The notes beneath the pieces are model-generated. The model worked only from the letters and a program-made list of their open reading frames with translations. It was not told the origin of the DNA and did not search any database. The translations under genes were made by a program, and so were the position numbers. This document shows positions 686-55,847 of a stretch of 64,000 bases of DNA, piece by piece. Source of the DNA: Candidatus Woesebacteria bacterium UBA5941 (GTDB lineage Bacteria; Patescibacteriota; Microgenomatia; UBA8517); contig DJCV01000012.1 in assembly GCA_002430735.1 (NCBI GenBank), forward strand, positions 1,390 to 65,389, in the 5' to 3' direction. Numbering within the stretch: the first letter of the stretch is position 1; each line of letters begins with the position of its first letter.

Positions 686-1432
686 ATGAGCGCTATGTTA
701 AAAGTAAAAAGATTTATATACGTTTGTGCATACTTAGTGCTTCGTATTGTCTCACCCAGGCATCGAAAGCAATGGGCAAGACTCACAGGAGAGATAAAGC
801 GATTAACTCCAAAAGAAAAACGTGCACTCTTACTGCTTGATCCTTCTCTAGCATATAACAATGAATACTTCCTGTCTGATCAGTTTGAAGATCAAAACGA
901 ATGGTCAAACAAAATCTCTCAAGTTATTGATAAACATCTTAAGCCCAAGAGCGTAGTTGATGTTGGTTGTGGTCGAGGTTTGTTTTTAAGACATTTTCAT
1001 GAGAAGTCCATTCGAATACTTGGCATTGAAGGATCTTCTAGTGCAATAAAAAATCTAGTGGTTCCGAAAAATAAGATTATTCAGACTGACCTTCGCAACG
1101 TGTTTCAGAAGACGAATGCGAGAAAGTATGATATCGCTATCAGTTTTGAAGTGGCGGAGCATCTTGAACGTGAGTTTGCAGGTGTTTTTGTATATAACTT
1201 AACCACCCTCTCTAATACGATTTTGTTTACAGCTGCACACCCAGGCTGGTCTATTCCACATCCTCACCATCCGAACGAACAACCATATGAGTATTGGGAT
1301 ACTCTGTTTGAATTCTATGGTTATAAAGAAGACACGAAAACAACAAATAGGTTGAGACGAGAACTTGCAAAATTACACCTGCCTCTAAACGTTTCTCATT
1401 ACTCAGATGTAAAGGTATACAAAAAAAGATAA
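686..1432 (+). CDS. Class I SAM-dependent methyltransferase
   Basis: ORF track; motif I VVDVGCGRGLF, acidic loop and ISFEVAEHLE typical of Methyltransf_11/12 fold. Confidence 0.7.
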   Translation: MSAMLKVKRFIYVCAYLVLRIVSPRHRKQWARLTGEIKRLTPKEKRALLLLDPSLAYNNEYFLSDQFEDQNEWSNKISQVIDKHLKPKSVVDVGCGRGLFLRHFHEKSIRILGIEGSSSAIKNLVVPKNKIIQTDLRNVFQKTNARKYDIAISFEVAEHLEREFAGVFVYNLTTLSNTILFTAAHPGWSIPHPHHPNEQPYEYWDTLFEFYGYKEDTKTTNRLRRELAKLHLPLNVSHYSDVKVYKKR

Positions 1433-3510
1433 TGAAAAATAGAATAGGAGTATTTTTATTTACACATAAATACCCTATTTTCCTCCTGCTTGTTTCCGGT
1501 TTTCTCACATGGACACACTTTAAGTATGGTCGTTTGATCGCAACCGCCGAGGAGGCACTTACCTTTTATAACCCCGAGAGAACGCTTCGGTTATTCAGCT
1601 CTCTTTGGGTTGAAGTATCATCCGGATTTCCAATCGCATTTTTAATTCCGCGTATTCCTGTTCTTTTTGCTTCAGCACTCCTCCAAGAAGCGCTGTTTCC
1701 GCACTATGTACAAGCTGTTCTCTTCTTCTTTATATTTTGTTCTGGTTTCATTGGATCATTCTACTGTTTCAAATCCTTAACAAAAATTAACTCAAATAGA
1801 ATCGCTTTTTTGGTTGCATTATTTTATGGATCTAATTTGTTTACACTCACACAGGTATGGCAACGTTTCTTGTACCCACTGTTTTTCTTGTGGGCATTTT
1901 TGCCTGTGTTTTTAGTTCTGTGGGATTTATTACTAGGAAGTAAAAAAAGGAAATATCTTGGTTGGCTCGTGGTGACTTCAATTGTTTATTCGTATACCTT
2001 TACCTTTCCCTCATCTATTTTGCTCCTCGGGTTGGTCATGGTATTTGTCTCCTTAAAGCACATTTTCTTTGCAGGTAACAAGGCAAGCCAATTGCGTTTT
2101 ACAGTAAAAACAGTTTCTTTTTGGGCAGTTTTCCAGCTCTGGTGGTTTATTCCACTGTTTTTCCTGAGAAACAGCGCTTTATCTGAAAGTGTGAGTACTG
2201 ATCAAAATATTTCGGCTTTACGGGAAGTAAGTCAATTCTTTAATAACAGTGATGTTCTCCTGTTGAAGCAACAATTCTTCTTTAGCGGTGGAGGATACTT
2301 CAGTGAGTACTATCAAAGCCATCTATTGCAAAGTCTTAGTGGAATTCTGCTCAGCATCGTCATTGTTGGCCTTGTTCTTTCCGCAAAAAGCCGTACATAT
2401 CGACTCGTTAGCATCTTTTTTCTATTCAGTTGGTTTCTTGTCAAAGGTAGTAACCCTCCATTCGGTGATCTTTTTTATACAACGCTCTTTGAGAAGATTC
2501 TTTTTGCACAAGTCCTGCGCAATCCTTATGAGAAGCTTGGCGTCTTATATACTTTGCTTTACTCACTCTTTTTGGGGGTAGGGGTATATTTTCTAACAAA
2601 TAAACTGCAGAGCTACGCTCGCAATGCACTACACATTCTTCTGCTTGTATCACTTCTTGCACTTTCTTGGCCTCTATGGAAAGGGTCTGTTTTTCCGTAC
2701 TTTTATTATGTTACCGTCCCACAACGGTATGAGGAGGTAAACAAAATTGTCTCAGAAAATCAGGGCAGAATACTTCAATTACCACTTTCACGCGGTTCTA
2801 CCGTTGAATACTCATGGTTTTATCGAGGAGAGGACCCGAGTGAATATTTGTATGACAGGCCATCAGTATCAAAATTCACAACACTTACCTCACTAGACCG
2901 TTTTTACTCAGGGCTGGTACAAAATATTTCACATAAAAATATGCCACATTTGTTAGCTGTCGCTAATATTGGGAGCGCGATCGTGAATTATGATCTAGTA
3001 AAGTCCCCGTATTTTTCAGAAACGGCTACTGACAGTAGCCTAATGGTGCAAAAATGGTTAAACGGGGCAAAGCCAATTAAAATCGAGACGTTAGAAGTAT
3101 ATCCTCAGTTAGAAGAATCAGCCGTTGGTGCGGTGTACCTCGTGAATCAGATAAAAAATGTAACAGGAGTTGATTCTGCGTTCCAGTTCATGCTTGAGGA
3201 CGCATTTAACCCAAAGACAATGGCGGTTGTCGAAGGCGCCAATGAAATAAAAATCGCAGAAGTGAAAGAACTACCCTCACATGCTGTGGAGAAAATACAA
3301 CCCCGGCATTACAAGGTAACCGTACATGAAAACTCAGGCACATTCTTACTGATCTTGACCCAAAGCTTCAATAAAAATTGGAGGGCCACAATTAATGGCA
3401 ATCGTGTACCAGAGCACGTATTAGCCAATGGATACGCGAACGGGTGGATTATCTCACATACAGGCACGTACGAAATTGATATAATCTTTCAGGTATTTCC
3501 ATGGGAATAA
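1432..3510 (+). CDS. Large polytopic membrane protein, putative GT-C-fold glycosyltransferase (paralog 1 of 4)
   Basis: 692 aa, about 12 predicted hydrophobic helices N-terminally plus soluble C-terminal domain; shares KGSNPPFGDLF...FAQVLRNPYEKLG motif and C-terminal NGYANGW motif with ORFs at 8187, 11033, 13598. Confidence 0.6.
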   Translation: MKNRIGVFLFTHKYPIFLLLVSGFLTWTHFKYGRLIATAEEALTFYNPERTLRLFSSLWVEVSSGFPIAFLIPRIPVLFASALLQEALFPHYVQAVLFFFIFCSGFIGSFYCFKSLTKINSNRIAFLVALFYGSNLFTLTQVWQRFLYPLFFLWAFLPVFLVLWDLLLGSKKRKYLGWLVVTSIVYSYTFTFPSSILLLGLVMVFVSLKHIFFAGNKASQLRFTVKTVSFWAVFQLWWFIPLFFLRNSALSESVSTDQNISALREVSQFFNNSDVLLLKQQFFFSGGGYFSEYYQSHLLQSLSGILLSIVIVGLVLSAKSRTYRLVSIFFLFSWFLVKGSNPPFGDLFYTTLFEKILFAQVLRNPYEKLGVLYTLLYSLFLGVGVYFLTNKLQSYARNALHILLLVSLLALSWPLWKGSVFPYFYYVTVPQRYEEVNKIVSENQGRILQLPLSRGSTVEYSWFYRGEDPSEYLYDRPSVSKFTTLTSLDRFYSGLVQNISHKNMPHLLAVANIGSAIVNYDLVKSPYFSETATDSSLMVQKWLNGAKPIKIETLEVYPQLEESAVGAVYLVNQIKNVTGVDSAFQFMLEDAFNPKTMAVVEGANEIKIAEVKELPSHAVEKIQPRHYKVTVHENSGTFLLILTQSFNKNWRATINGNRVPEHVLANGYANGWIISHTGTYEIDIIFQVFPWE

Positions 3511-4346
3511 ACAATCTAGACTCAAAAACGAATAAAAGGCTATCTGAATTACTCGCCAATACGGGTGATATGGCATTAAAGCGAAGAGCTCGTGAAATTG
3601 TCACTCACCTTGAGCTGAAGGATGGTCTTTCCGTGTTAGATATTGGGTGTGGTGACGGGTACTATCTCCATTTGTTGTCAAAATTGCCATATAAATTGAA
3701 GTTATCTGGTACAGATTATGATGAAAGTGGTTTGTCTCGTGCACGTAAGAATTTAGGAAAAGGAATCCCGCTCTATCAAGGGGATTTAATGGCAAAATTA
3801 CCTTTTAAATCAAACACCTGGGACAGAGTTGTCATGTCTGAGGTGGCGGAGCATTTGCCCAATGATGTGAAAGGGTTAAAAGAGGTGAATCGCGTTCTGA
3901 AAAAGGGTGGGAGTATTTGTCTAACCGTGCCATGCTGGGATTTCCCTCTTTTGTGGGATCCTCTAAGTTGGATACTTCAACGAGTCGGCACACCTATACG
4001 GCATGGATTTTTTGCAGGTATTTGGAATCAACATGAACGACTGTATAAGCCAGATCAGATTGTGAGTGTCTTAAAAAAAGCCGGGTTTGAAGTTGTGGAA
4101 TCAAAAACAGTGACCTTTTGGTGTTTGCCGTTTAATCATTACATTGTGAACATTACTGCACGGCTTCTTGCCGCAGGTTCTGTCTCAGGAGAGACAGCCA
4201 CAGCTTTAAGTAAGTATTCGGTAAAACCAAAGCGGTCCTTTTTATTAAATATGGCATTCAAATTCGCAAATGCGGTGGACTCATTAAATAATTGGTACCA
4301 ACCACGAAGTGGTGTCGCCGTCTTCGTACATGCAAGGAAAAAATGA
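3501..4346 (+). CDS. Class I SAM-dependent methyltransferase
   Basis: VLDIGCGDGYYLH motif I, EVAEHLPND, LKKGGSICLTVP motifs. Confidence 0.75.
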   Translation: MGINNLDSKTNKRLSELLANTGDMALKRRAREIVTHLELKDGLSVLDIGCGDGYYLHLLSKLPYKLKLSGTDYDESGLSRARKNLGKGIPLYQGDLMAKLPFKSNTWDRVVMSEVAEHLPNDVKGLKEVNRVLKKGGSICLTVPCWDFPLLWDPLSWILQRVGTPIRHGFFAGIWNQHERLYKPDQIVSVLKKAGFEVVESKTVTFWCLPFNHYIVNITARLLAAGSVSGETATALSKYSVKPKRSFLLNMAFKFANAVDSLNNWYQPRSGVAVFVHARKK

Positions 4347-5524
4347 AGCAAATATACATTTGGGCTGCAGGCGCGCGAGGAAACGGCATTTCTGGAAGTG
4401 ACCGTATTTTTATAGAATTTGCTCGACGCTGGCAAAATCCAAAAACTCATGTGGTAGTGACTACCGAGGGGCGAGAAATGTGCCTACGCAATAACTTGAA
4501 CGATACTCAGGTAAACTTCCTCATTGTTCCATCACCTCAAGAAAAACGATTTGGTTTTTTCATTAGTTATTTTTCGACGATCATATCATCAATCTGGTAT
4601 GCGTTTACAATACGGGTCGATGATCCATCTCAATCTGTTGTGTATTCCGCAAGCGAATTTTGGATGGACAGTATTCCAGCAGTTATTCTAAAGTTTCGAT
4701 ATCAAAAGATAACCTGGGCGGCAACCTGGTACCAAACTGCGCCGAACCCTTTAAAAGGGTTTACTGAATCTAAGAGACAGAACGCGTATCGACTCAGTGC
4801 TTTTTACTATTGGTTTATGCAGTTGCCAGTGAAACCACTCATTTCTGCTTTTGCAAATAAAATTCTTGTAAATAATGAACTTGAGAGAAAACAATTTCCA
4901 GCAGCAAACAAGCAAGGGAAAGTAGAGGTTGTCATAGGTGCTGTGGATACAAAAAAGATCATTGCATATAAAGAAAATCACAAGAAACCAACGAAGCCTA
5001 TATACGACGCAGTTTTTCAAGGACGCTTTCATCCTCAAAAAGGAGTCGTTGAGCTTATTCGCATATGGTCAAAGGTTTGTCTTTCCCACCCGACGGCGAA
5101 ACTCGCAATGATTGGTGACGGTCCACTTATGCAAACAGTTCGTAGCGAAATAGCAAAGTATCAGTTAGAGGAGAATATTACGCTGGCAGGGTACGTTTTG
5201 GACGGTGATAAAAAGTACTACACTTTTTTGAACTCAAAGATGGTAGTTCATCCAGCGAAATATGATAGTGGAGGTATGGCAGCTGCGGAAGCAATGTCAT
5301 TTGACATGCCCTGTATTGGGTTTAATTTACAAGCATATAAATCTTACTATCCAGTGGGTATGGTTACCTCAAAAAATGACGAAGACTTTGCTAGAAACAT
5401 TATAAAACTTATTAAGAACGAAACCTTGAGAAAACGATTAGGTCGAGAGGCTGGAATCTTTGTGCTTCGTAATTATTCTTGGGACATTCGCGCTGAAAGT
5501 GTGAGAATATTTATTACATCATGA
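4343..5524 (+). CDS. Glycosyltransferase family 4 (GT-B, retaining type)
   Basis: ORF track frame 4292..5524; likely start ATG 4343 overlapping upstream stop (ATGA); C-terminal GGMAAAEAMSFDMPCIGFN is the GT4 EX7E-region signature. Confidence 0.75.
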   Translation: MKQIYIWAAGARGNGISGSDRIFIEFARRWQNPKTHVVVTTEGREMCLRNNLNDTQVNFLIVPSPQEKRFGFFISYFSTIISSIWYAFTIRVDDPSQSVVYSASEFWMDSIPAVILKFRYQKITWAATWYQTAPNPLKGFTESKRQNAYRLSAFYYWFMQLPVKPLISAFANKILVNNELERKQFPAANKQGKVEVVIGAVDTKKIIAYKENHKKPTKPIYDAVFQGRFHPQKGVVELIRIWSKVCLSHPTAKLAMIGDGPLMQTVRSEIAKYQLEENITLAGYVLDGDKKYYTFLNSKMVVHPAKYDSGGMAAAEAMSFDMPCIGFNLQAYKSYYPVGMVTSKNDEDFARNIIKLIKNETLRKRLGREAGIFVLRNYSWDIRAESVRIFITS

Positions 5525-6354
5525 AAAAAACGCCATTAGTCTCAGTAATTATTCCATGCAAGAATTCTTCAAAGATGATTTCAAGTTGTTTACAAAGCAT
5601 TAAGGATCAAACTTACAAAAACTTAGAAATTATTGTCGTTGATAACTATTCTGTGGACGATACGTACGCGATTGCACGTACATTTACTAAAAATGTCTAC
5701 AAGAAAGGACCGGAAAGGAGTACTCAGCGGAACTGGGGAGTGATGAAAAGTCGTGGTGATTGGGTGCTTTTTGTCGACAGCGATATGGAGCTTTCTCCTA
5801 CAGTTGTCGAAAATTGCGTAAAAATAGTTCGAAAAAATTCAGCAGTAAAGGGCTTGATTATTCCTGAGGAGTCAATGGGGGAAGGGTTTTGGGCAAAATG
5901 CAAGAATCTAGAAAGGAGCTTTTATGTAGGTGTGGCTTATATGGAAGCAGCGAGGTTTTTTAACAAAAAATTGTTCCTTGAGGTTGGTGGGTATGATGAA
6001 ACAATGGTAAGCGGCGAAGACTGGTATCTCTCTCAAAAATTTGAAAAGGTAGGGAAAATAAAAAATGTTCCAGACCTTATATACCACAACGAAGGGCAGC
6101 TAACTTTGAGTGGAACTATTCGCAAAAAATTTTATTATGCAAAGCATTTCGTAAAGTATATGCATATCCGTGACAATAAATATATTAAGCATCAGACCAG
6201 CATTGTTTCTCGGTATAAACTCTTTTTCTCCCGACCAAGAAAATTATTTGCAAACCCATTCGTAGGGGTTGGAATGCTTATTATGAAGACAGGTGAGTTT
6301 GCTGCTGGTGGACTTGGATATTTAATGTCGATTACTTCAAAGACCATCTCATGA
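5521..6354 (+). CDS. Glycosyltransferase family 2 (GT-A)
   Basis: N-terminal VSVIIPCKNSSKMISSCLQSI...EIIVVDNYSVDDT (GT2 signature with DxD region DSDME). Confidence 0.8.
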   Translation: MKKTPLVSVIIPCKNSSKMISSCLQSIKDQTYKNLEIIVVDNYSVDDTYAIARTFTKNVYKKGPERSTQRNWGVMKSRGDWVLFVDSDMELSPTVVENCVKIVRKNSAVKGLIIPEESMGEGFWAKCKNLERSFYVGVAYMEAARFFNKKLFLEVGGYDETMVSGEDWYLSQKFEKVGKIKNVPDLIYHNEGQLTLSGTIRKKFYYAKHFVKYMHIRDNKYIKHQTSIVSRYKLFFSRPRKLFANPFVGVGMLIMKTGEFAAGGLGYLMSITSKTIS

Positions 6355-7379
6355 AAACGCCACTGGTTAGTGTAATCTTAGTAAACTTTAATGGACTGAA
6401 GTGGCTTGAAACTTGTTTGTCATCACTAACAAATCAGTCTTATAAAAACATAGAGGTTGTTTTCGTCGACAATGCTTCATCTGATGAGAGTATTTCCTTT
6501 GTAAAAAACAACTATAAAAAAGTAAAAATAGTTGCACTGAAAGAAAATGTTGGATTTGCAGGTGGGAATAATGCTGGCCTTCCATTTTGTCACGGAACAT
6601 ATCTCTGTTTGCTAAATACAGATACCACAATTGAAAAAGGCTACATAGAAAAGATGATACAGCCCTTTAAAACCGACAATAGTTTGGCGATCGCCCAAAG
6701 TAAAATCGTGCTGATGGACAAACCATCTATTATCGACACATGCGGTTCATACTGGACAGGAAGTACTTTTTTATATCACATGGGTAATGGAAAAAATGCC
6801 AATAAAGGTATGTATAACAAAAACCAGTTTGTTTTCAGTGTAAAAGCTGCGTCAGTCATGATACGCAAGAGTGTTGTTGATGAAATTGGATTATTTGATT
6901 CAAGATTTTGGAATTACTATGAAGAAACAGATTTCTGTCACAGGGCTATGATTTCTGGTTACTCATGCATGTACTATCCATCAGCTATTTGCTATCACGC
7001 AGGGGGCGGAACTACATTGTCTGAATTCAATTATGACTATATACAGTTCCATAATTTTAAGAATAAACTCGCAAGCTTTTTGAAGAATTTCGATCGACTG
7101 ACACTGGTATTTGTATTGCCCAAGTTTTTGTTTCTAAATTTTGTGATTAGCGCTTTGTGGCTTCTCACTGGAAAGTGGAGGTTTAGCGTAGCTCTGTATA
7201 AGGCGATTTGGTGGAATATCTCAAACCTGAAAGATACTTTTAAACTTCGTATGACAAATAACAGAAATCGTGTGAAGAGGGATAGCGAATATTTGCCAGC
7301 CGTTACAAGAAACCCACAGCTAAATTACTACGTTGCATTATTCACAGGAAATTTTAAGAATTACATTGATTATGAATAA
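6351..7379 (+). CDS. Glycosyltransferase family 2 with C-terminal membrane segments
   Basis: LVSVILVNFNGLKWLETCLSSL...EVVFVDNASSDES; hydrophobic C-terminal region. Confidence 0.8.
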   Translation: MKTPLVSVILVNFNGLKWLETCLSSLTNQSYKNIEVVFVDNASSDESISFVKNNYKKVKIVALKENVGFAGGNNAGLPFCHGTYLCLLNTDTTIEKGYIEKMIQPFKTDNSLAIAQSKIVLMDKPSIIDTCGSYWTGSTFLYHMGNGKNANKGMYNKNQFVFSVKAASVMIRKSVVDEIGLFDSRFWNYYEETDFCHRAMISGYSCMYYPSAICYHAGGGTTLSEFNYDYIQFHNFKNKLASFLKNFDRLTLVFVLPKFLFLNFVISALWLLTGKWRFSVALYKAIWWNISNLKDTFKLRMTNNRNRVKRDSEYLPAVTRNPQLNYYVALFTGNFKNYIDYE

Positions 7380-8217
7380 GCAATGTCCAGTCTGTCGTCA
7401 AAGAAATGGAGAACGAAATTTTTCTGCCTATGAGTCTCATGGGAGATTTCAAAAGAGTGGAGGGAAACGTTTTCAATATTATAAATGTACGAATTGTGGA
7501 TCGTTGTTTCATGCCGAAAAAATTACTAACAATTTTTATAAGGCTTATTATCCTGAGCAATACTATGATGATGAGCCTTCTGGATTATCAAAAGTATTAA
7601 CTCAATTTTCAAATTATAAAAAAAGAAAGTTAGTTGAAAGTAGTTCAAAGGACAGGCAGTTAAGCATTCTGGATGTTGGTTGTGGAAACGGGTTGTTTTT
7701 GAAATCTTTACCCAACAGATATAAGAAGCATGGCGTTGAAATTGATCGGAAAGCTGCTTCTGTAGCGCAAGCATCAGGTGCAGAGATTTTTGTGGGCGAT
7801 TTTACAAACATGCAGATCTCGAAAAAGTTTGATGTAATTGTCTCGTGGCATGTGATTGAACATATTGTGAATCCAAACGCTTTTATGAAGAAAGTTAGCG
7901 AGTTACTAAAACCTGAGGGAACCTTCCTTTGCTCAACACCAAACGCCCATTGTTTGGGAATGCACTTTGGCAAAACAGATTGGTTCCATCTTGACGCACC
8001 TCGACACATAACACTCTTTAACAAAAGATCACTGAAGTTAATTGCAGAAAATAACGGACTGGTGTGTGAAAGAATTATTTCTAATTATTGGGAATTTCCA
8101 CTGGACACTTTTTGGTCTCTCAAGAGCACTTTACTCTCAATACCAATGATACTCATGTACCCATTTATGAAGCGCGCTGATGAGGAATGTATAACTATCA
8201 TATGTCGGAAAAAGTAA
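7372..8217 (+). CDS. SAM-dependent methyltransferase with N-terminal C4 zinc ribbon
   Basis: ORF track 7333 (TTG); canonical ATG at 7372 gives MNKQCPVCRQ...YKCTNCGSLF (two CxxC pairs) followed by LDVGCGNGLFLKSL motif I. Confidence 0.7.
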   Translation: MNKQCPVCRQRNGERNFSAYESHGRFQKSGGKRFQYYKCTNCGSLFHAEKITNNFYKAYYPEQYYDDEPSGLSKVLTQFSNYKKRKLVESSSKDRQLSILDVGCGNGLFLKSLPNRYKKHGVEIDRKAASVAQASGAEIFVGDFTNMQISKKFDVIVSWHVIEHIVNPNAFMKKVSELLKPEGTFLCSTPNAHCLGMHFGKTDWFHLDAPRHITLFNKRSLKLIAENNGLVCERIISNYWEFPLDTFWSLKSTLLSIPMILMYPFMKRADEECITIICRKK

Positions 8218-10358
8218 AAACAATTATTCTCTCTTTTGTCTGCCTGGCTTTAATTGTCATTCCGGTCGTAAAAAACCAAAGTGGATATCTTGTAGGTGGT
8301 GATGACACAAAGCTCTATTATGTTTTTCCAGATAAGTTTTTATCAAATTACGCATTCAATCTTATCTCAGACAATACTTTAGCAGGAGCAAATTCTGGCT
8401 ACTATCCGGTGTCATATTTCGCGCCACTATTTATTGTCTTTTGGCTGCTCAAAGTAATCCCTTTAAACACGCAGTTTTTAAGCTTTGGAATAAACCTCGC
8501 TGTTGGGTTTCTCTTCACATACAAACTGCTCATCCTTCTCCGCCCTCAGAAAAGTGTAGCTTCATTTACAGGTTACGTTTTAAGTGCGCTCCTGTTTGTT
8601 TTCTCACCTTTTCTTACTGAGACGCTTTATAACCATCAGCTACTGTCAATGTATTTAGTCGCGACTTTTCCCCTGACGACATTTCTGTTTTTGAAAGGGG
8701 TTAAGGAACATAGATTCTCGTATACCCTGTTTGCAAGCATCGTATTCTCACTGTTTAGTACCACACTAAACGCACTTCCTTGGATCGCTGGTTTTTTACT
8801 CGCTTCGTTACCTGCAATATTGTTTCTCCTTATTGAAAAGAAACATGCAATAAAACACTTCATCGTTTTTACGACCAGCTCTGTATTGTTAAACTTTTAC
8901 TGGATCTTCTTTTTTATACACTCGCAGATTTACGGTTCTGGATTATCAACTACTACGGAAACATATTCTTCAAACAGCTTCGTTTTTGATAACTTACGCA
9001 TAATAGAAACAGTATCTCGAATGTTTAGCCCGCTCAGTCAAATTTTTCATAATGTCTTACCAAACGGATATGCCACATTTCAAACGATCGACGTATTGTC
9101 ATGCACAATTCTTGTGATGGTCATGTTGGCACTTGCAACAGCGCACAAAGAACATCGAAAAGCACTTCTTATATCAGGCCTGTGTTTACTGTTCAGTTGG
9201 TTTTTATTTTCTCCAAATATGGGCTCATGGGGTCCGAAGACATTTGTGTTTTTGAGCAGAAACATACCATTTTTTACCATGTTCAGAAATATGTTTGATA
9301 AGTTCTCACTTCCTTTAGCCTTTTATTATGCGCTTTGTTTTGGCTTTTCTATTCATGCCCTGCAAGGTGTTTTGAAAAAGCATGGTAGTGTCATTGTCCT
9401 GGGGATTTCCTTTACAGTAGTCATGTTTTTTGGCAAATCATTATTCGAATTAAAAGATACACAAGAGAATCGGTTCAGCGGTCGATTTAACTCTGATTAC
9501 ATGAATTTAGTGACTTATTTCGAAGGACAAACAGATCAATCGCGTATTCTATGGCTGCCTTTAAACGGACCCACATATGCAAACATTGAAGACGACACGA
9601 ATACCGGTTCATATTATTCAGGTTTGTCGCCACTGCATATTTTGTCAGGGAAACCTGATTACACTGGTCGCTTCAGTTTTATTATTCCAGAAGACATATT
9701 TTATGGAGACAAAATATTTAATTCGTTAAGGGCAGGAAACTATCAGGAGGTAGGGGAAGCGCTACAAAAGTTAAACGCAAGATATATTGTAATTGATAAG
9801 CAGAGGCTACCCGCTAATATCGCAGATTTTATGTATGGTGGGGAAGGCTATCCGCTGCTAACGGCTCAAAGCGAAGAATTTTATGAACATATCCTAGGGG
9901 AGAAACTAACAGACTTCGGTCAACGGTATTCCGTCTATAAAATAGCCGAGAAATATGACAGCGATAGAGTGTACGTAGCCAGCGACACCGCACGTTCGCT
10001 TGATAGTAATGCGAAGAGTTTAGTCCGGTATGAAAAGCTTTCCAGTGATCGGTATTCAATTACTTTTTCTCGGAGTGACATCTATAACAATCTTGTTTTT
10101 CTAGATCCCTATTACCGTGATTGGGAAGTAATTCATAATGATAATGAAGTATTCCTTGATCAATCTGTCGCATTTGGGTATGCAAACGCTTGGAATACCC
10201 TTCCACTCATTGAAAATAGCAATACGGAAGACGTTACGGTGCAACTCGTGTTCAGACCTCAGCAATATAGTCTTTTTGCGTATTCAGTGAGTATAATAAC
10301 CGTGCTACTGCTACTATCATACATTGCATATGACTACTCAAAACACAGAATTTTATAA
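8187..10358 (+). CDS. Large polytopic membrane protein, putative GT-C-fold glycosyltransferase (paralog 2 of 4)
   Basis: 723 aa; GGDDTKLYYVFPDKF loop motif shared with paralog 3 (GGDDTRVYFEYPFEYF); SPNMGSWGPKTF...IPFFTMFRNMFDKFSLP motif; C-terminal FGYANAW. Confidence 0.6.
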   Translation: MYNYHMSEKVKTIILSFVCLALIVIPVVKNQSGYLVGGDDTKLYYVFPDKFLSNYAFNLISDNTLAGANSGYYPVSYFAPLFIVFWLLKVIPLNTQFLSFGINLAVGFLFTYKLLILLRPQKSVASFTGYVLSALLFVFSPFLTETLYNHQLLSMYLVATFPLTTFLFLKGVKEHRFSYTLFASIVFSLFSTTLNALPWIAGFLLASLPAILFLLIEKKHAIKHFIVFTTSSVLLNFYWIFFFIHSQIYGSGLSTTTETYSSNSFVFDNLRIIETVSRMFSPLSQIFHNVLPNGYATFQTIDVLSCTILVMVMLALATAHKEHRKALLISGLCLLFSWFLFSPNMGSWGPKTFVFLSRNIPFFTMFRNMFDKFSLPLAFYYALCFGFSIHALQGVLKKHGSVIVLGISFTVVMFFGKSLFELKDTQENRFSGRFNSDYMNLVTYFEGQTDQSRILWLPLNGPTYANIEDDTNTGSYYSGLSPLHILSGKPDYTGRFSFIIPEDIFYGDKIFNSLRAGNYQEVGEALQKLNARYIVIDKQRLPANIADFMYGGEGYPLLTAQSEEFYEHILGEKLTDFGQRYSVYKIAEKYDSDRVYVASDTARSLDSNAKSLVRYEKLSSDRYSITFSRSDIYNNLVFLDPYYRDWEVIHNDNEVFLDQSVAFGYANAWNTLPLIENSNTEDVTVQLVFRPQQYSLFAYSVSIITVLLLLSYIAYDYSKHRIL

Positions 10359-11031
10359 CACGAACGAGATTGCTGAAGTATCACACCGCGGGTATTATCC
10401 TGAAAAAGCACGCTTCATAAAAGAGTATTTAGATACCAATATTCGAAGATTGAAGAAGAATGTAAGATCCCGAATACTAGATATTGCTTGTAATGACGGG
10501 GTCCTTACCCATTCGTATTTGAAGTATGGGGAAGTGATTGGAGTTGATATTAACAAAAGGGCGATCGCAGCGACAAAAAAGAAGGGGATTAAAGCGTTTT
10601 GTATGGATATTTCGGAACTAAGCGAGTCATACAACGAATCGTTTGACGTAATTATTGCTGGGGACATTATTGAGCATATTTTTGATTCTGATGCATTTCT
10701 CATGCACATAAATCGTTTATTAAAGCCAGGTGGCTCACTTTTACTGACAACACCGAACGTTGCGTCGTTCCCACGGAGAATACTTTTGTTATTGGGAATA
10801 AATCCGTACTTGGAATATTCGGTTGAGTTGCCTTCTCGGGAATATAACGTTGGGCACGTTCGATACTACACAGCAGCCGATTTACGAAAACAGCTTGAAC
10901 ACCATCACCTTACAGTTGAAGAAATAAGGGGTGACAAAGTAAATCTCGGGATTTTTAGCTTGACAGGAAAAATTGCGGCAATGATCCCTACATTGTCGAG
11001 AAATTTAATGGTGCGAGCAACAAAGCAGTGA
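10324..11031 (+). CDS. Class I SAM-dependent methyltransferase
   Basis: ILDIACNDGVLTH motif I, IIAGDIIEHIFD, LLKPGGSLLLTTPN. Confidence 0.75.
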   Translation: MHMTTQNTEFYNTNEIAEVSHRGYYPEKARFIKEYLDTNIRRLKKNVRSRILDIACNDGVLTHSYLKYGEVIGVDINKRAIAATKKKGIKAFCMDISELSESYNESFDVIIAGDIIEHIFDSDAFLMHINRLLKPGGSLLLTTPNVASFPRRILLLLGINPYLEYSVELPSREYNVGHVRYYTAADLRKQLEHHHLTVEEIRGDKVNLGIFSLTGKIAAMIPTLSRNLMVRATKQ

Positions 11032-11032
11032 A

Positions 11033-13444
11033 ATGAAAATCTTTTACGTTCCGCTCGCGCTTCTATCCGCCATTATCGTAGCGACGCTTTTTAATAATTT
11101 CTTGCTTGCTGAAAAGATAGCACCACTTTTTTGGTTGTCGTTCAGTGCCTCTCTCATTAGTTCACTGCTTTACGAAATGCGCAGTGAACTAATGCAGTCG
11201 TTTAACACGTACTCACTATTTGTATTGAAAAAGCTTGATATAATACTCTCCAAAACGCGTGCTTTATTTATTGCTTGTGGCATCATTGCACTGCTCTATG
11301 GATTTACCACCACTAAATTCATGGGAGGAGATGACACTCGAGTTTATTTCGAATATCCCTTTGAATATTTTACGAATTTTTCTTCTCATGTTGCAAGTAA
11401 CAATGCATTCAGCGGACTTATTGGCTTCTTACCACCTCCATCAATTAGCCCGTTTGTATTAATGCTTTCAGGCGTCAAGACAATACTTCCGTTTCTTAAT
11501 TTGCAGGCCGTGTATTTCGTTGGAAATATCACGTTTGGATTTTTCTTCTTCTTTCAACTGTTACTTCAACTCTTTCCGAAGAAGAGCGAATATCAGAATG
11601 TTGTCTTTGCCATTTGTTCGCTCCTCTATGTATTTTCGCAATTTAATATCTATACGCTTTACTCATCACAGACACTCGGGATGTTTGTCGTGAGTGTCTT
11701 ACCTTGCTCACTGTATTTATTTTCTCGTTCAATCAGAGAGCGAAAACTTTCCTTTTTGATTATTATCGCGCTTCTATTAACGCTTTTTAGCGTATTTGCT
11801 GTTGGACTACCGTGGTTTGCCGGGTCTGTACTCGTATTACTGCCAATCGCGATTTATATTTCTTTCTTTAATGTGAAGCGAAGCGTCTTTTATTTCACCA
11901 TTCTGTGCATATTGCTCGCTCTCTTTAATGCAAACTGGTTGGCATTTGTAACACATTCACCAGTTGTTCAAAACACGGTTGGTGTTCAAAGTAGTTTATC
12001 TTCAACGACGTTCAGAGAAATGAATGAGGTAGGTATTCGTTCAACGGCGGCTCACAACAATCCGTTATATGCGGTGTTAAACATTTTCCCAAAAGGACTG
12101 CAGACCGCATTTAATTGGCCATATCTTTCTGTGTATCGTGATTGGTATTCGAATATTCTTTTGGTAAATGGATTTTTTGTTGGAATCTTTGTCTCTGGGT
12201 TAGTTATTGCTTATAAAAAACGAAGAGAGAGAGTCGTGTATCTGGTAACGCTCGTATCGTTCTTAGTAGGATTGTATTTATTTATTGTAAATTTCGGTTC
12301 AATAGGTGTCGACTTATTTATACTTCTTACAGAACGCATTCCAGGGTTTGTAATGTTTCGAAATATGTACGACAAATTCGCACTTGGATTTTCTTTAGCA
12401 TATTCACTACTTCTTGCATCGAGTTTTTATATTGTCATGCAATCTAAGATATCCGACGTTGCTAAGAGAGTAGTTGTAGCACTGTTCTTTTTTGTAATGG
12501 TTCTCAACTTAAAACCAGTTCTCTTTAATGACTTTAGTCGAATTCCACTTTGGACAACTGAGGCATCATACGGAACGATTAAAGCGTTTAATAGCGATTT
12601 TGAATTACTGCTTCAGTACATGAAGTCGCATCCAACGGATGCACGATATCTGCTTGCACCACTTGCCAGTGGAAATATTTTCCCAATTGAGGATCGCTTC
12701 AATAGAAATAATTATTACGTTGGTGTCTCTCCTCTTTTCCTACTGACTGGTCAAAATGATTATTCGGGGATATTAAGTTTTGGTGCCTTAGGGGAAGAAG
12801 TGCGTACGTATCTACGAGAACGAGAATATGAAAAACTGCGCGGGTTTTTTAAAGAAATGAATGTAGGGTATATTATCAAAAACAATAGTGTTTCACCTGA
12901 TATTCAAAGAAGCTATATTTATTCTGATAATTTAATTGAGGACCAAGACAGTGAATTCTTTGACGAAATACTTGGTTCTAAGATTGCGGACTTTGGCAGC
13001 AGATATTCGTTGTACTCAGTGAAGGATGACTACATTCCACAAAAGGTATTTATTGCTGATAACCCTGGGGCAAATGTTACTTACGAAAAGACTGGCGACT
13101 ACCATTATGTAGTGCACATCACTAATGCGAAAGTAGATGATGTACTTGCATTCCTTGAGCCGCTCAGCGGGGATTGGATACTTGAATCAGTGTCAGGGAT
13201 TCCAATTACATCTGCAGCTACTGTCGTTTACAACGGATATGCAAATAGCTGGAAACTTACAGATACCTTGCTGTCACAGCTCCCACAAAGTGATGTAACC
13301 CGTGAGGGAGACGATGTTATTCAAGCCACCTTGTCACTATCGTATGTCCCACAGAAAATGTATACCCCTACCTTCTACCTATCATATGGAGCAATGATCG
13401 TTGCAGTGATCCTCTTAATAGTCTTACTATTACGAAATGAGTAA
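11033..13444 (+). CDS. Large polytopic membrane protein, putative GT-C-fold glycosyltransferase (paralog 3 of 4)
   Basis: 803 aa; ERIPGFVMFRNMYDKFALGF motif, C-terminal NGYANSW. Confidence 0.6.
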   Translation: MKIFYVPLALLSAIIVATLFNNFLLAEKIAPLFWLSFSASLISSLLYEMRSELMQSFNTYSLFVLKKLDIILSKTRALFIACGIIALLYGFTTTKFMGGDDTRVYFEYPFEYFTNFSSHVASNNAFSGLIGFLPPPSISPFVLMLSGVKTILPFLNLQAVYFVGNITFGFFFFFQLLLQLFPKKSEYQNVVFAICSLLYVFSQFNIYTLYSSQTLGMFVVSVLPCSLYLFSRSIRERKLSFLIIIALLLTLFSVFAVGLPWFAGSVLVLLPIAIYISFFNVKRSVFYFTILCILLALFNANWLAFVTHSPVVQNTVGVQSSLSSTTFREMNEVGIRSTAAHNNPLYAVLNIFPKGLQTAFNWPYLSVYRDWYSNILLVNGFFVGIFVSGLVIAYKKRRERVVYLVTLVSFLVGLYLFIVNFGSIGVDLFILLTERIPGFVMFRNMYDKFALGFSLAYSLLLASSFYIVMQSKISDVAKRVVVALFFFVMVLNLKPVLFNDFSRIPLWTTEASYGTIKAFNSDFELLLQYMKSHPTDARYLLAPLASGNIFPIEDRFNRNNYYVGVSPLFLLTGQNDYSGILSFGALGEEVRTYLREREYEKLRGFFKEMNVGYIIKNNSVSPDIQRSYIYSDNLIEDQDSEFFDEILGSKIADFGSRYSLYSVKDDYIPQKVFIADNPGANVTYEKTGDYHYVVHITNAKVDDVLAFLEPLSGDWILESVSGIPITSAATVVYNGYANSWKLTDTLLSQLPQSDVTREGDDVIQATLSLSYVPQKMYTPTFYLSYGAMIVAVILLIVLLLRNE

Positions 13445-13601
13445 ATACTTATTTGTTAGCATTCTCTTGATTACGCCTCTTTTAGCATTTACCACAGTAA
13501 TCGGAAGGTACGGGTTATTAAATAGGTTACCTTTATTTGTTGGAGTGGTTATCGCATTTGGCGTAGTAGTCTACTTGGCTGAGTTACTGCATAAAAAATG
13601 A
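13437..13601 (+). CDS. Small 54-aa two-helix membrane protein (unlisted small ORF)
   Basis: ATG 13437 overlapping stop of upstream gene; hand translation MSKYLFVSILLITPLLAFTTVIGRYGLLNRLPLFVGVVIAFGVVVYLAELLHKK; TGA 13599-13601 overlaps ATG 13598 of next gene (ATGA coupling). Confidence 0.35.
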   Translation: MSKYLFVSILLITPLLAFTTVIGRYGLLNRLPLFVGVVIAFGVVVYLAELLHKK

Positions 13602-16291
13602 TGAAACTAACGAAGTACTCCATTTTTATAATTCCAATCCTAATTGGAGTCTCGTTGTATTTTCGCACGGCAGTATCACCTCAAATTGGAGCACACGATC
13701 TACCGTTTATTTATTCCGCCCAATTACAAGAAGCCTTTGCGACACCACAGGCCTGGATCACCAGATATGGAAACAGCTTTGGAAGTGACAACGTTTCGAC
13801 GCTTTGGTTGTGGCCATACGATTTTCTCGGCGGAGCGTTATCTAAAATTGGATTCTCTTATAGCAGTTTTATAAAGGTATTTGGAATTCTGCCGTCAGTA
13901 CTTCTGGGATACTTCGGCATTTACACGATTCTTAAAAAAGCGAATTTGCACAAAAATGCTCGTGTGTTGGGAGGACTTTTGTATGTGACAAGCACGTACT
14001 TTTTACTACTTATCGATGGGGGACAAGTGCAGGTCGCTCTGGCATATGGCATGTTACCAATCGTCTTACAAGCATTCCTTGTAAGCCTTGAAAAGAAGAC
14101 TTTGATACCAAAAATGTATTTCGGAATAACACTCACCCTTTTGGGTTTTTGCGATTTCCGATTTGTGTACGTCGCGTTAATTGTACTTGCGCTATGGACA
14201 CTCGTGCATGTAAAGCAATTAAAATCTGCAGCAACAACAACGATTGTAGGATCTCTTGTTTTATTAATTGCGAATATCTACTGGATGTATCCAGTGCTCG
14301 TGTATCGATCAGTGTCACTTCCTTATAGCTATTCACAACCGGCAGAATTAGGTTTTTTAAGTTTTGCTACATTCTGGCATGGGTTTCAGTTTTTAGCACC
14401 GCATTGGTATGAAAATATATTCGGTACCATTGCTTTGATAAATCCACTCTTTTTCGTTGTTCCATTTATCTCATTTGCTGCGCCAGTCTTTGTGCGTCGA
14501 AACAAATCTGTCGCATTTTATTTACTTGTTTTGGCAGTTGGATTGCTACTGAGCAAAGGGTTAAATCCACCGCTTGAGTCAGTGAATTTATTTATATTTC
14601 AGAACATTCCAGGAATGTCGTTATTTAGAGACCCAACGAAATTTTACTTTCTCCTTGGGTTAGGATTTGCAGGACTCTCTGCATATACTCTCAACTATTT
14701 AATTGAGCAAAAACGCGTCTACTTAACCCGCGGAGTCTACACGCTTTTTTCTTTGTATCTAATCGGTGTGGTATCTCCAATTATTAGTGGGAAGATGACC
14801 GGAATTCTCAACTATCCTGATCAGGTTTCTGAATACAACACGTTTAAAGAAGTTATTACGAAGAAAGGACCTGGACGTACCCTCTGGATTCCTGATCGCG
14901 GTCAACTTGGGTTTTCTTCACCGCTTAATCCATCACTTGATATGACAATACTCAATCAAATTCGACCATTTGTAAGTCAATCTGTGGGGTCGTATGAAAT
15001 TAATAATTTCTTAAGGGAGGGATCTTTTGTCGGTGAGTTACTTTCTATGAGTGGCATTTCTCGAATTGTTTATCCTGGAGTTGATAAACGCAGAGTGAAG
15101 CTTTCAGACGAAGATCTGCCATATCATGATATATTCTTTGATCAAATTGCAAGGCGCCCGTGGGCAGAGCAAGGGGAAGTCGAGAATACCCTCTTAGTTG
15201 AAAATGCACAGGCAGAGATATATCCGTTATCAAGTATGAACTTTGTTCTCGGTCCTGATTCTTTCTATGATGAAATGGCTTCAAGTAGTGCCCGATTAGC
15301 AGGAACAGTATTGATAGAGCAGTTCCCTGGTCTAATGGAAGAAGTGTGGTCACAGAATTTTCCAGTACTCGCATTCCGAAAGACTGAAACTGATATTGTG
15401 GCCTCCCTCATACCATCACATTTCATGCATAGCATTGCGGATAGTCTGAAAAATGACCCTGATCAGTCTGGTTGGTGGAAAAGGGGAACAAACCAATTCA
15501 GGGAGGCGCGAGTATTCCTGCAAGAAAAATACGCGATTGATATGAGAGATTTTGATTATGGTCATGGATGGGCATTCTCTGAGGGAAATCTTACCCATGA
15601 AGTAAAAGAGCCGACAATTGATGGTCATCTCTACATTAGAGTGCTTACAACAACGTTAGGAGGCATGGTCAGTGCCGTAAATAACGGAAACGCTATCGGA
15701 ACAGTCTCAACTATTCCCGAAAACAAATCAGTACGTACAGTTTCGTTTAGTGGCGGCGGCGCTCCAAGTGTTACTGAATATGAAGAAGGTGTTTTCCACT
15801 GGTATTATCTTGGAAAAACAACAAAAGGAACCCTCTCACTCCAAACAAAGGGAGAATTAAATGCGGTTACTTCAATTGCAGTTATTCCTGATACTGTTCA
15901 AAACGAAATAACTCAAAAAAGGTCTCATTTGTCCGTGCGTTTTTGGGATGAGATGTCTGATGTCGATAAGCGCGCGCTGTTTCAAACTGGAACACCGACT
16001 ACGTTGTCCATCCTTGCCTCTACGCCAACAAGTAAAGAAATAGAGGTGAGTGGTACATCTGGTGGTGCTTTTATCGGTTTTTCTAATACATATAGTCCCC
16101 ACTGGAAAATTCAAAACGACGAAAATTCGCAAAGCTATCCCCTTTTCACATTTCTAAATGCATTTTATATACCTGCTGATGGGAGGTATACTCTACAATA
16201 TGAGCCACAGACCTCAGTTGCTATTGGGTCGATCGCTAGCGGTATTGGTATCATACTTATCACATTAGTTGTTTTATGCAAAAGAAAGTAA
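13598..16291 (+). CDS. Large polytopic membrane protein, putative GT-C-fold glycosyltransferase (paralog 4 of 4, largest)
   Basis: 897 aa; KGLNPPLESVNLFIFQNIPGMSLFRDPTKFYF motif aligned with other paralogs; C-terminal NTYSPHW; C-terminal TM. Confidence 0.6.
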   Translation: MMKLTKYSIFIIPILIGVSLYFRTAVSPQIGAHDLPFIYSAQLQEAFATPQAWITRYGNSFGSDNVSTLWLWPYDFLGGALSKIGFSYSSFIKVFGILPSVLLGYFGIYTILKKANLHKNARVLGGLLYVTSTYFLLLIDGGQVQVALAYGMLPIVLQAFLVSLEKKTLIPKMYFGITLTLLGFCDFRFVYVALIVLALWTLVHVKQLKSAATTTIVGSLVLLIANIYWMYPVLVYRSVSLPYSYSQPAELGFLSFATFWHGFQFLAPHWYENIFGTIALINPLFFVVPFISFAAPVFVRRNKSVAFYLLVLAVGLLLSKGLNPPLESVNLFIFQNIPGMSLFRDPTKFYFLLGLGFAGLSAYTLNYLIEQKRVYLTRGVYTLFSLYLIGVVSPIISGKMTGILNYPDQVSEYNTFKEVITKKGPGRTLWIPDRGQLGFSSPLNPSLDMTILNQIRPFVSQSVGSYEINNFLREGSFVGELLSMSGISRIVYPGVDKRRVKLSDEDLPYHDIFFDQIARRPWAEQGEVENTLLVENAQAEIYPLSSMNFVLGPDSFYDEMASSSARLAGTVLIEQFPGLMEEVWSQNFPVLAFRKTETDIVASLIPSHFMHSIADSLKNDPDQSGWWKRGTNQFREARVFLQEKYAIDMRDFDYGHGWAFSEGNLTHEVKEPTIDGHLYIRVLTTTLGGMVSAVNNGNAIGTVSTIPENKSVRTVSFSGGGAPSVTEYEEGVFHWYYLGKTTKGTLSLQTKGELNAVTSIAVIPDTVQNEITQKRSHLSVRFWDEMSDVDKRALFQTGTPTTLSILASTPTSKEIEVSGTSGGAFIGFSNTYSPHWKIQNDENSQSYPLFTFLNAFYIPADGRYTLQYEPQTSVAIGSIASGIGIILITLVVLCKRK

Positions 16292-17016
16292 TTATTGTAA
16301 TGCCGGCATATAACGCCGCAAAGACGCTACAAAAGACCTATTCTGACATCCCCAAAAAGTATAAGAAATCAATATTGCTTGTTGATGACGGGAGTCATGA
16401 CTCGACAGTCCGCAAAGCAAAACGATTAGGAATTAAAACCATTAGCCATCCGCAAAACAGAGGATACGGCGGTAATCAAAAAACCTGCTACACCGTTGCG
16501 GTGTCTGAAAAGGCAGATATTGTAGTAATGATCCATCCAGACTATCAGTACGATGCAACATTAACAGAAGAATTAATTAGACCGTTATTACAAGGGCGCG
16601 AAGATATTATGCTCGGCTCCCGGATCAGAACTCGTGAAGAGGTATTAAGTGGAGGAATGCCCTGGTGGAAATATGCTGGAAACCGCTTTCTCACTATATT
16701 TGAAAACACAGTACTCGGTCGGAACTTGTCTGAATACCACACAGGTCTTCGCGCATACACAAAAGAAACATTAAAGGTATTACCGTTCCACCGATTTTCT
16801 GATGATTTTGTTTTTGATCAGGAATTGTTAGTATCCGCAGTCTATTCAGGTTTGCGTATTGGAGAAATCCCCGTACCCGTGAGGTATTTCCCTGACGCAT
16901 CTTCGATCAGCTTTATGCGCTCAGTAAAATATGGACTCATGACACTCCTTACTCTCGCTAAATATATGATTGCAAAGACCGGAATTGTGGTACCTGCTAT
17001 TTTTATAAAAAAGTAA
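16276..17016 (+). CDS. GT2 polyprenyl-phosphate sugar synthase (DPM1/ArnC/CsbB-like)
   Basis: VIIVMPAYNAAKTL...LLVDDGSHDST; HPDYQYD; LSEYHTGLRAYTKETL region typical of dolichol-/undecaprenyl-phosphate glycosyltransferases. Confidence 0.7.
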   Translation: MQKKVIIVMPAYNAAKTLQKTYSDIPKKYKKSILLVDDGSHDSTVRKAKRLGIKTISHPQNRGYGGNQKTCYTVAVSEKADIVVMIHPDYQYDATLTEELIRPLLQGREDIMLGSRIRTREEVLSGGMPWWKYAGNRFLTIFENTVLGRNLSEYHTGLRAYTKETLKVLPFHRFSDDFVFDQELLVSAVYSGLRIGEIPVPVRYFPDASSISFMRSVKYGLMTLLTLAKYMIAKTGIVVPAIFIKK

Positions 17017-42979: not shown

Positions 42980-43411
42980 ATGCTCTTAGGAAACTATTCA
43001 ACGAACTTAAGTCAGGGGAAGCGATTAGCAATTCCCAAGAAATTTCGGTCTCAACTGGGAGACTCATGTATTGTGGCCAAATGGTACGACAAATGTCTGG
43101 TAGTTCTCTCACCCGACAATTGGTCTGAACTTTTACAACGGTTAACAGTTACTGATTCTGTTCCAACAGCAGCAGTTCGAGACACGATGCGATTCGTAAT
43201 GGGATCAGCATATGAGGTTTCACCTGATGCTCAAGGAAGAGTGGTACTTCCTGATAGTTTATTAAATTATGCAGGGATTACTGGGGAAGTGGTCTTTTTA
43301 GGATTGGGTTCACGAGTTGAGGTTTGGGATAAGAAAGAATGGGAAACAAAGGAAAGCTTTATTGGTGAGAATGCCGCTGCCCTATTAGAACAGATGGCAG
43401 ATGGAAAATAA
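42980..43411 (+). CDS. mraZ: Transcriptional regulator MraZ
   Basis: MLLGNYSTNLSQGKRLAIPKKFR matches MraZ N-terminus (MFxGxxxxxLDxKGRxxIPxxFR); second half-domain present; first gene of dcw cluster. Confidence 0.85.
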   Translation: MLLGNYSTNLSQGKRLAIPKKFRSQLGDSCIVAKWYDKCLVVLSPDNWSELLQRLTVTDSVPTAAVRDTMRFVMGSAYEVSPDAQGRVVLPDSLLNYAGITGEVVFLGLGSRVEVWDKKEWETKESFIGENAAALLEQMADGK

Positions 43412-44532: not shown

Positions 44533-44533
44533 T

Positions 44534-46252: not shown

Positions 46253-46266
46253 TACAATAACCACTC

Positions 46267-49352: not shown

Positions 49353-49398
49353 TTCTCTATTATATATGGTATTTTGAACTGGATGTTATAATTATCTA

Positions 49399-50907: not shown

Positions 50908-50908
50908 T

Positions 50909-55846: not shown

Positions 55847-55847
55847 C

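Follow-up and report, generated by a model that had tools for sequence, protein, structure and literature searches.

The window analysed here, a stretch of 64,000 nucleotides (nt) from Candidatus Woesebacteria bacterium UBA5941, carries four genes for large polytopic membrane proteins, which we name P1, P2, P3, and P4. Comparison of their family profiles indicates that the four proteins are true, anciently diverged paralogs. Taking sequence profiles and structural models together, they are best placed in the GT-C glycosyltransferase superfamily, as an AftD-like branch, and they are likely to be extracytoplasmic, polyprenyl-phosphate-sugar-dependent enzymes of a surface-glycan locus. The genome, of about 0.94 Mb, belongs to the Patescibacteria (candidate phyla radiation, CPR), and the glycan-biosynthesis locus that holds P1–P4 extends over more than 45 kb. 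The four open reading frames (ORFs) listed by the initial annotation are present on the + strand with the following features:

1432-3510, + strand: P1, putative AftD-like GT-C of 692 amino acids (aa) without a C-terminal transmembrane (TM) anchor; key residues the acidic pair E40/E41 of the first extracytoplasmic loop (nt 1549-1554), R363-N364...K368 (nt 2518-2535), E467/D468, and NGYANGW (666-672).
8187-10358, + strand: P2, putative AftD-like GT-C of 723 aa with a C-terminal TM helix (690-719); key residues GGDD 37-40 (nt 8295-8306) and FRNMFDKF 366-373 (nt 9282-9305).
11033-13444, + strand: P3, nearest paralog of P2, 803 aa, with a C-terminal TM helix and an E value of 1e-214 to the hidden Markov model (HMM) of the P2/3 family; key residues GGDD 98-101 (nt 11324-11335) and FRNMYDKF 442-449 (nt 12356-12379).
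13598-16291, + strand: P4, most diverged paralog, 897 aa, with a C-terminal TM helix (870-896) and an extra beta-sandwich region resembling a carbohydrate-binding module (CBM); key residues D34 (nt 13697-13699), DGGQ 140-143, and FRDPTKF 343-349 (nt 14624-14644).

Family profiles of the four paralogs

All four proteins combine an N-terminal polytopic domain, in which hydropathy analysis identifies 11-13 hydrophobic segments, with a large C-terminal soluble part, in agreement with the architecture that had been proposed for them. A final TM helix follows the soluble domain in P2, P3, and P4 and is missing from P1 and its close relatives. Public gene calls give P4 a length of 878 aa instead of 897 aa, the difference lying at 13598-13654 of the window. 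The shorter call would lose TM1, which is located ahead of the invariant D34, and the longer start, which overlaps the stop of a small upstream ORF, is backed by the family alignment and by the AlphaFold2 model (helix 4-26).

For the profiles, 69 relatives of P2 and 47 of P4 were gathered; for P1 there were 1691 cluster representatives (E ≤ 1e-3). Pairwise alignment is secure only for P2 and P3 (BLASTP E 9.6e-72, 29% identity over 687 aa). P1 matches P2 and P3 at E values of 2e-5 and 3e-5 respectively, and P4 has no significant pairwise BLASTP match to P1–P3 (E 0.015-4). It is the family profiles that settle the earlier proposal of four diverged paralogs. By hhalign, the P1 family aligns with the P4 family at E 3.9e-55 over 679 columns and with the P2/3 family at E 3.6e-52 over 663 columns, while the P2/3 and P4 families align at E 6.4e-30 over 657 columns. 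The three alignments are colinear from TM1 to the C-terminus, soluble domains included. Moreover, the P1-family HMM recognizes P2, P4, and P3 at E values of 5.5e-45, 3.5e-30, and 1.6e-27. A PMT_2-type GT-C encoded at 21046-22479 of the window served as a control: against it, the P1-family profile gave an hhalign probability of 0.9% and an E value of 0.06. Together, the profile E values and this control argue for a specific relationship that hydrophobic composition does not explain.

Structural similarity to GT-C enzymes

The AlphaFold2 model of P2, computed on the family alignment, is confident (pLDDT 89.8, pTM 0.90). The secondary structure of the P2 and P4 models consists of TM1, loop-1 helices, and around 12 more TM helices, so that a polytopic domain with an extracytoplasmic region behind TM1 is formed, as in GT-C proteins with their 7-13 TM helices. 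A Foldseek search of the PDB with the P2 model retrieved STT3, AftD, and PglB at E values of about 3e-7. A further structural comparison lists STT3B, Pmt4, Pmt2, PglB, AftA, ALG9, ALG12, AglB, ArnT, DPY19, and AftB behind the leading match. The GT-C fold suspected from the sequence is therefore supported by similarity to solved GT-C enzymes. AftD is aligned over 583 residues, compared with 389-422 for oligosaccharyltransferase (OST) structures, because its soluble domain matches too.

The sequence-level link to AftD runs through the P1 family. PF11847, the AftD family formerly called DUF3367, is matched by 22 of the 35 P1-family relatives (E ≤ 0.01, best 7e-23), and the weak matches of P4 and P1 themselves to this family fall at colinear profile positions. 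The P1-family profile matches AftD (PDB 6w98) with an E value of 1.3e-8. The alignment falls into three colinear stretches, and in the final one NGYANGW lies opposite the AftD segment VNGWQQGW. One P4 relative contains PF10131. Three families had been named as candidates, among which AftD/DUF3367 proved to be the fitting one and YfhO and DUF2079 did not. In HMM searches, YfhO (PF09586), DUF2079 (PF09852), and PMT/PMT_2 (PF02366/PF13231) appear unrelated to P1–P4, with no match to the four proteins even at E ≤ 5 and none among 28 P4-family and 35 P1-family relatives.

Residues conserved across the families

A joint alignment of 106 sequences from all families was used to identify conserved columns, defined as those conserved to at least 80% in every family. 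Given in the order P1/P2/P3/P4, these are:

E40/D40/D101/D34
G65/G67/S127/G62
Y132/F137/Y199/Y129
P158/P162/P224/P154
W238/W239/W302/W229
R363/R367/R443/R344
N364/N368/N444/D345
K368/K372/K448/K348
P451/P458/P543/P432
W650/W646/W715/W836
N670/N667/N738/N854

The first of these columns provides the acidic residue that had been sought in the first extracytoplasmic loop, and it is 86-100% conserved in each family. In both AlphaFold2 models (P2 and P4) the invariant Asp lies directly behind TM1, and it is at this position that GT-C enzymes canonically carry their catalytic or metal-binding carboxylate. In P2 and P3 this residue belongs to the GGDDT(K/R) motif noticed earlier (37-42 in P2, 98-103 in P3), which is almost invariant within the P2/3 family. 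The internal motif of the initial annotation is likewise in register in the joint alignment, reading KGSNPPFG...LRNPYEKLG in P1, SPNMGSWG...FRNMFDKF in P2, FRNMYDKF in P3, and KGLNPPLE...FRDPTKF in P4. Its core, the loop motif R-N/D-x3-K, is kept in all families, and in the P2 and P4 models the R...K motif is carried by short helices that separate two of the late TM helices.

The C-terminal motif is in register for P1–P3 (NGYANGW, FGYANAW, NGYANSW), but the NTYSPHW assigned to it in P4 (830-836) is mis-registered. That segment aligns instead with an upstream motif around the invariant Trp (SFNKNW, PYYRDW, and PLSGDW), and the P4 counterpart of NGYANGW is TFLNAF (851-856, with N854).

Methyltransferases adjacent to the paralogs

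Four class I S-adenosylmethionine (SAM) methyltransferase genes are interleaved with P1–P4, and a small membrane ORF lies between P3 and P4:

686-1432, + strand: MT1, class I SAM methyltransferase, 248 aa; Methyltransf_23, E 1.8e-11; its stop overlaps the P1 start.
3501-4346, + strand: MT2, class I SAM methyltransferase, 281 aa; Methyltransf_11, E 4e-18, with UbiE/COQ5-like matches.
7333-8217, + strand: MT3, class I SAM methyltransferase, Cys4 motif at the N-terminus; Methyltransf_23, E 1.6e-25; overlaps the P2 start.
10324-11031, + strand: MT4, class I SAM methyltransferase, 235 aa; Methyltransf_23, E 6.5e-21.
13437-13601, + strand: mini-ORF, 54 aa, two TM segments, tail basic (...YLAELLHKK); its ends overlap the stop of P3 and the start of P4 (ATGA).

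The identification of MT1–MT4 as methyltransferases holds (Pfam Methyltransf_23/11/25, E 1e-11 to 1e-25), and their positions beside GT-C genes recur in other CPR genomes. Since they have no TM segments, they should act in the cytoplasm, whereas the GT-C active site would face outward, so any coupling would be indirect. The conserved adjacency of methyltransferase and GT-C genes argues for a shared pathway, and a direct module does not follow from it. The methyltransferases probably attach O-methyl groups to sugars of the glycan that P1–P4 would build, working in the cytoplasm on lipid-linked intermediates or donors.

Duplicated modules of glycosyl transfer and O-methylation had also been suggested. 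This idea keeps weak support for one pair: MT3-P2 and MT4-P3 could be a single duplicated unit, because P2 and P3 are the closest GT-C pair and MT3 and MT4 resemble each other at E 1.5e-20. However, MT4 is equally similar to MT5, a methyltransferase downstream of P4 (E 1.7e-19), and no comparable pairing pattern is seen for P1 or P4 elsewhere. As a general rule, the view of the methyltransferases as recent duplicates travelling with the GT-Cs was rejected, as they resemble one another in the Rossmann core only (23-36%).

The mini-ORF precisely fills the only 'intergenic' gap of the gene array. It has no family match, and its product may serve as a partner subunit or resemble a flippase. A similar ORF of 53-107 aa with two or three TM segments abuts the start of each long-form (at least 830 aa) P4-type gene examined in the related loci L001, L002/L003, L006, L007, L009, L010, L013, L016, L028, and L032, with L005 as the single exception; at the short-form P4 genes of the loci examined it is absent.

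Related loci in other CPR genomes

A scan with P2/3-family patterns, taking one genome per species, identified 34 loci, all in CPR genomes, and a methyltransferase HMM, along with the HMMs of the three families, was used to classify the ORFs of these loci. In the species-level collection, the hosts of the relatives are all CPR metagenome-assembled genomes (MAGs), from Levyibacteriota, Amesbacteria, Moraniibacteriota, Saccharibacteria, Berkelbacteria, Staskawiczbacteria, and Peribacteria. Two or more superfamily members occur within 10 kb in 24 of the 31 loci that hold a full-length member. The usual order is a P1-type gene, an MT2 ortholog, a few glycosyltransferase genes, an MT3-like gene, a P2-type gene, in some cases an MT4-like gene, a second P2/3-type gene, and a P4-type gene. 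The whole order of the window is reproduced in L006 and almost so in L007, L008, L009, and L016.

A methyltransferase gene lies immediately upstream on the same strand for 17 of the 44 P2/3-type genes, mostly as an MT3-like gene, compared with one of the 19 P4-type and none of the eight P1-type genes. MT2 orthologs (56-61% identical) follow the P1-type gene in approximately ten other CPR loci, and MT4 orthologs (43-49% identical) stand beside P2/3-type genes in L006, L011, L026, and L034. MT2 shows the strongest conservation in the neighbourhood; the adjacent GT-Cs in the loci with its orthologs are about 40% identical. The block behind P4, comprising GT2, MT5, GT2, GT4, GT2, PMT_2, PMT_2, GT4, and GT4 genes, is syntenic in L002, L003, and L005. 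A Wzx-type flippase gene (Polysacc_synt) directly follows the P4-type gene in L002, L003, and L006, and the window is without one.

Many third party annotation (TPA) MAG records with clear Patescibacteria-type loci, those of L009, L011-L013, L016-L018, L020, L021, L023-L026, L028, L030, L032, L036, and L037, are titled 'uncultured Gammaproteobacteria bacterium'. These titles look generic or erroneous and are not usable as taxonomy.

Proposed function and alternative explanations

In the mechanism that we propose, sugars would be loaded onto polyprenyl phosphate by cytoplasmic GT2 enzymes, and the lipid-linked sugar would then be flipped outward. The R/K loop of each paralog would hold the lipid phosphate, and the loop-1 carboxylate, as a base or a metal ligand, would assist the transfer of one sugar to an elongating surface glycan that the soluble, CBM-like domain would keep in place. 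The four paralogs would in this way produce four different linkages or serve four acceptor positions. The soluble domain would be an extracytoplasmic alpha/beta plus beta-sandwich structure, with the R-N/D-x3-K loop in a juxtamembrane position. The use of a lipid-phosphate-linked sugar donor is suggested by nearby GT2 enzymes that resemble polyprenyl-phosphate sugar synthases at scores below the cut-offs. The genes directly downstream of P4, with Pfam matches, are:

16276-17016, + strand: GT2.
17018-17812, + strand: GT2.
17847-18536, + strand: MT5.
18533-19255, + strand: GT2.

Among NCBIfam models, the first and last of these GT2 enzymes (16276-17016 and 18533-19255) come closest to AglJ, PpgS, Dol-P hexose transferase, and ArnC, with scores well short of every cut-off. 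Judged by these matches, the two are the most plausible makers of lipid-linked donors, and they could equally serve the PMT_2-type GT-Cs of the array.

Points of resemblance to AftD (Rv0236c-type, Mycobacteriales; PDB 6W98/6WBX) are the sequence-profile link by way of the P1 family, the loop-1 acidic residue, the motif N-G-[YW]-x-x-G-W near the C-terminus, in P4 the beta-sandwich modules of CBM type, and a TM helix behind the soluble domain. P1–P4 differ from AftD in being about half as long (692-897 versus about 1400 aa) and in having a single C-terminal TM helix (P2–P4) or none (P1) where AftD has a five-helix bundle that binds acyl carrier protein. AftD carries three CBMs, whereas CBM-like modules are found in P4 only. 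The CPR genes stand in tandem arrays of two to four paralogs with methyltransferase partners, and their Patescibacteria hosts are without arabinogalactan or lipoarabinomannan (LAM). The residues reported as essential in AftD are K39, D41 (in loop 1), E251, K361, and D474 (bioRxiv 10.1101/2019.12.22.885152). According to the P1-family profile, E467/D468 of P1 aligns with the D-E-P segment of AftD; in the joint alignment, the loop-1 acidic residue and a loop Lys are conserved.

Several results weigh against the AftD-like assignment. None of P1–P4 reaches any Pfam or NCBIfam cut-off; for PF11847, whose gathering score is 26 bits, P4 scores 16.6 and P1 12.7 bits, and P2 and P3 have no match. The P2/3- and P4-family profiles match neither AftD nor other PDB sequences, the hits being noise (S-layer protein, E 0.27; NAD kinase, E 1.2), and direct phmmer searches of PDB sequences with P2 and P4 gave nothing meaningful. 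AftD was also left unmatched by phmmer of a long P1-type relative and by a profile of 20 long P1-type relatives. At the column of AftD D474/E475 the P2/3 family has G-L-S-P without an acid, the almost invariant D469 lying approximately ten residues upstream, and the mapping of the five AftD residues onto the paralogs is itself approximate. The PDB chain numbering is apparently offset by 3 from that of the paper. In the glycan array of the window (686-36286), no flippase (Wzx/MATE/GtrA/SMR), ABC exporter, or initiating phosphoglycosyltransferase was recognized, and no genes of a decaprenyl-phospho-arabinose pathway (UbiA-type, DprE1/E2-type) were seen among the window ORFs.

Other explanations were weighed against this background. 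It is improbable that P1–P4 are oligosaccharyltransferases of the STT3/PglB/AglB type, which would transfer a preassembled glycan from polyprenyl diphosphate to surface proteins such as pilins or the S-layer. CPR cells do display pili and surface layers, and these enzymes share a GT-C(A)-type fold with P1–P4 at high structural scores. However, a regular-expression search found no WWD(Y/W)G motif in the four proteins, which argues against membership, no OST family matches them in sequence, their soluble domain is different, the structural alignment with AftD is the wider one, and the CBM-like modules suggest a glycan acceptor. A non-catalytic role, in which the paralogs are AftD-like scaffolds or lipid-delivery factors that organize or transport a glycolipid, has in our estimate a similarly low probability. 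It draws on MmpA (Rv0226c/NCgl2761), a protein homologous to the N-terminal part of AftD that has been implicated in lipid transport without demonstrated catalysis and whose locus holds a soluble methyltransferase, MtrP (PMC8698533), a precedent that also counts against an enzymatic AftD-like reading. P4 and P1 match the NCBIfam model NF053599, 'MmpA family trehalose lipid delivery protein', locally over the R...K loop region, but at 33.9 bits (E 1.3e-8) and 16.7 bits (E 2e-3) they are far under the cut-off of 210 bits. MmpA is shorter (474-543 aa), has a small soluble domain in place of the large AftD-type one, and is linked to the transport of trehalose mycolates, lipids that CPR bacteria are not expected to have. 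Moreover, the loop-1 carboxylate and the R/K motif are strongly conserved in all four families, P4 bears CBM-like modules, and MmpA may itself be an uncharacterized enzyme.

A more specific scenario, which we regard as rather doubtful, is an assembly line particular to Patescibacteria in which each GT-C is paired with a cytoplasmic methyltransferase that methylates the polyprenyl-phosphate sugar donor ahead of flipping, the GT-C paralogs place the pre-methylated sugars on a surface polymer for host attachment, and the mini-ORF protein is a dedicated partner or flippase. Finally, the shared motifs could reflect chance or compositional similarity, or P1–P4 could be transporters. The insignificant pairwise BLASTP values of P4 would fit such a view, but it is refuted by the colinear profile alignments (1e-30 to 1e-55 over about 660 columns), by the PMT_2 control, and by the Foldseek search with the P2 model, in which transporter folds appear only at E > 0.03 with TM-scores of about 0.1; we give it practically no probability. 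The AftD-like reading is preferred and considered likely.

The logic proposed for the AftD-like enzymes resembles that of three-component extracytoplasmic glycosylation systems, which consist of a GtrB/CsbB-type GT2, a flippase, and a GT-C such as Gtr, YfhO, or GT136 (PMC11127046, PMC8035078). In those systems a small GT2 makes a polyprenyl-phosphate monosaccharide that the GT-C transfers outside the membrane, and some of the GT-Cs bear CBMs (GT136 ORF12); here the donor-synthase-like GT2 genes lie just downstream of P4. The systems differ in that no GtrA, MATE, or SMR flippase was recognized in the window and P1–P4 are not related in sequence to YfhO, GtrC-like proteins, or PMT_2. The presence of four AftD-like and three PMT_2-type GT-Cs suggests backbone building or multiple branching, not the decoration of a single side chain.

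CPR bacteria, or Patescibacteria, represent a large and mostly uncultured part of bacterial diversity, with tiny genomes and a life attached to host cells, and to our knowledge their surface chemistry is virtually unexplored. The fold and the general chemistry considered here are already known. New are the unannotated, CPR-specific P2/3-type and P4-type families, assigned with the sub-threshold P1 type to the AftD-like branch, an architecture shorter and simpler than that of AftD, the conserved tandem arrays with methyltransferase partners, and the mini membrane ORF upstream of long-form P4 genes. A literature search on DUF3367, Patescibacteria GT-C, and CPR arabinofuranosyltransferase found no paper on these CPR families. 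The P2/3-type and P4-type families, which lack Pfam or NCBIfam annotation, gain a predicted fold and a likely activity, and the AftD-like branch would extend well beyond Actinobacteria. Specific conserved residues are now available as targets for mutation. Many CPR lineages share the AftD-like array and the methyltransferase genes beside it. This recurrence, together with at least seven GT-Cs in a genome of this size, implies a complex surface glycan or lipoglycan, probably methylated, that is important to the cells.

Genomic context

The region 686-36286 forms a single co-directional array of around 30 genes whose ends overlap or almost touch. Besides P1–P4, its products include five class I SAM methyltransferases, eight GT2, eight GT4, and three PMT_2-type GT-Cs, a Wzy_C-like protein, a hexapeptide acyltransferase, and a ManC-like nucleotidyltransferase. 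The locus thus holds seven GT-Cs, four AftD-like and three PMT_2-type, the latter unrelated in sequence to P1–P4. The GT4 and the two GT2 enzymes encoded between P1 and P2 are cytoplasmic glycosyltransferases. Upstream of the window, the glycan locus continues for at least 10 kb with GT2/GT4 genes, three epimerase/dehydratase genes, and one nucleotidyltransferase gene. Downstream of the array follow genes for DUF4012, RecO, and GlyRS and a dcw peptidoglycan/division cluster, so that the glycan locus stands beside peptidoglycan genes. The remaining features are:

1 to about 690, - strand, extending beyond the left end (L004 9244-10002): FkbM-type methyltransferase (Methyltransf_21, 252 aa), divergently transcribed.
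L004 1355-3142, - strand, upstream of the window: polytopic protein of 595 aa without a Pfam match.
4292-5524, + strand: GT4 between P1 and P2; Pfam Glycos_transf_1, E 1e-24.
5521-6354 and 6351-7379, + strand: GT2 genes between P1 and P2; Pfam Glycos_transf_2, E 1e-26 and 3e-24.
21046-22479, 22464-23852, and 29403-30890, + strand: PMT_2-type GT-Cs of the same array.
28105-29448, + strand: Wzy_C-like polytopic protein of the same array.
36313-38355, + strand: DUF4012 protein, 680 aa, which ends the glycan array.
43401-61237: dcw-type cluster with MraW, FtsI, Ddl, MurF-like, MurE, MurD, MraY, FtsW, MurG, FtsA, and FtsZ.

The 595-aa protein has the sequence LTGDDYLG right behind its first TM helix, which gives it a GT-C-like look. 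It was considered as a fifth paralog and rejected, as the P1–P4 family HMMs do not match it. The N-terminus of the DUF4012 protein has a weak match (E 8e-5, under the cut-off) to the model for Mbov_0395-family pilin-like conjugal transfer proteins. The dcw-type cluster lies at most about 7 kb from the end of the glycan locus, and a gene for a Pif1-like helicase (50909-52252, - strand) sits among its Mur ligase genes.

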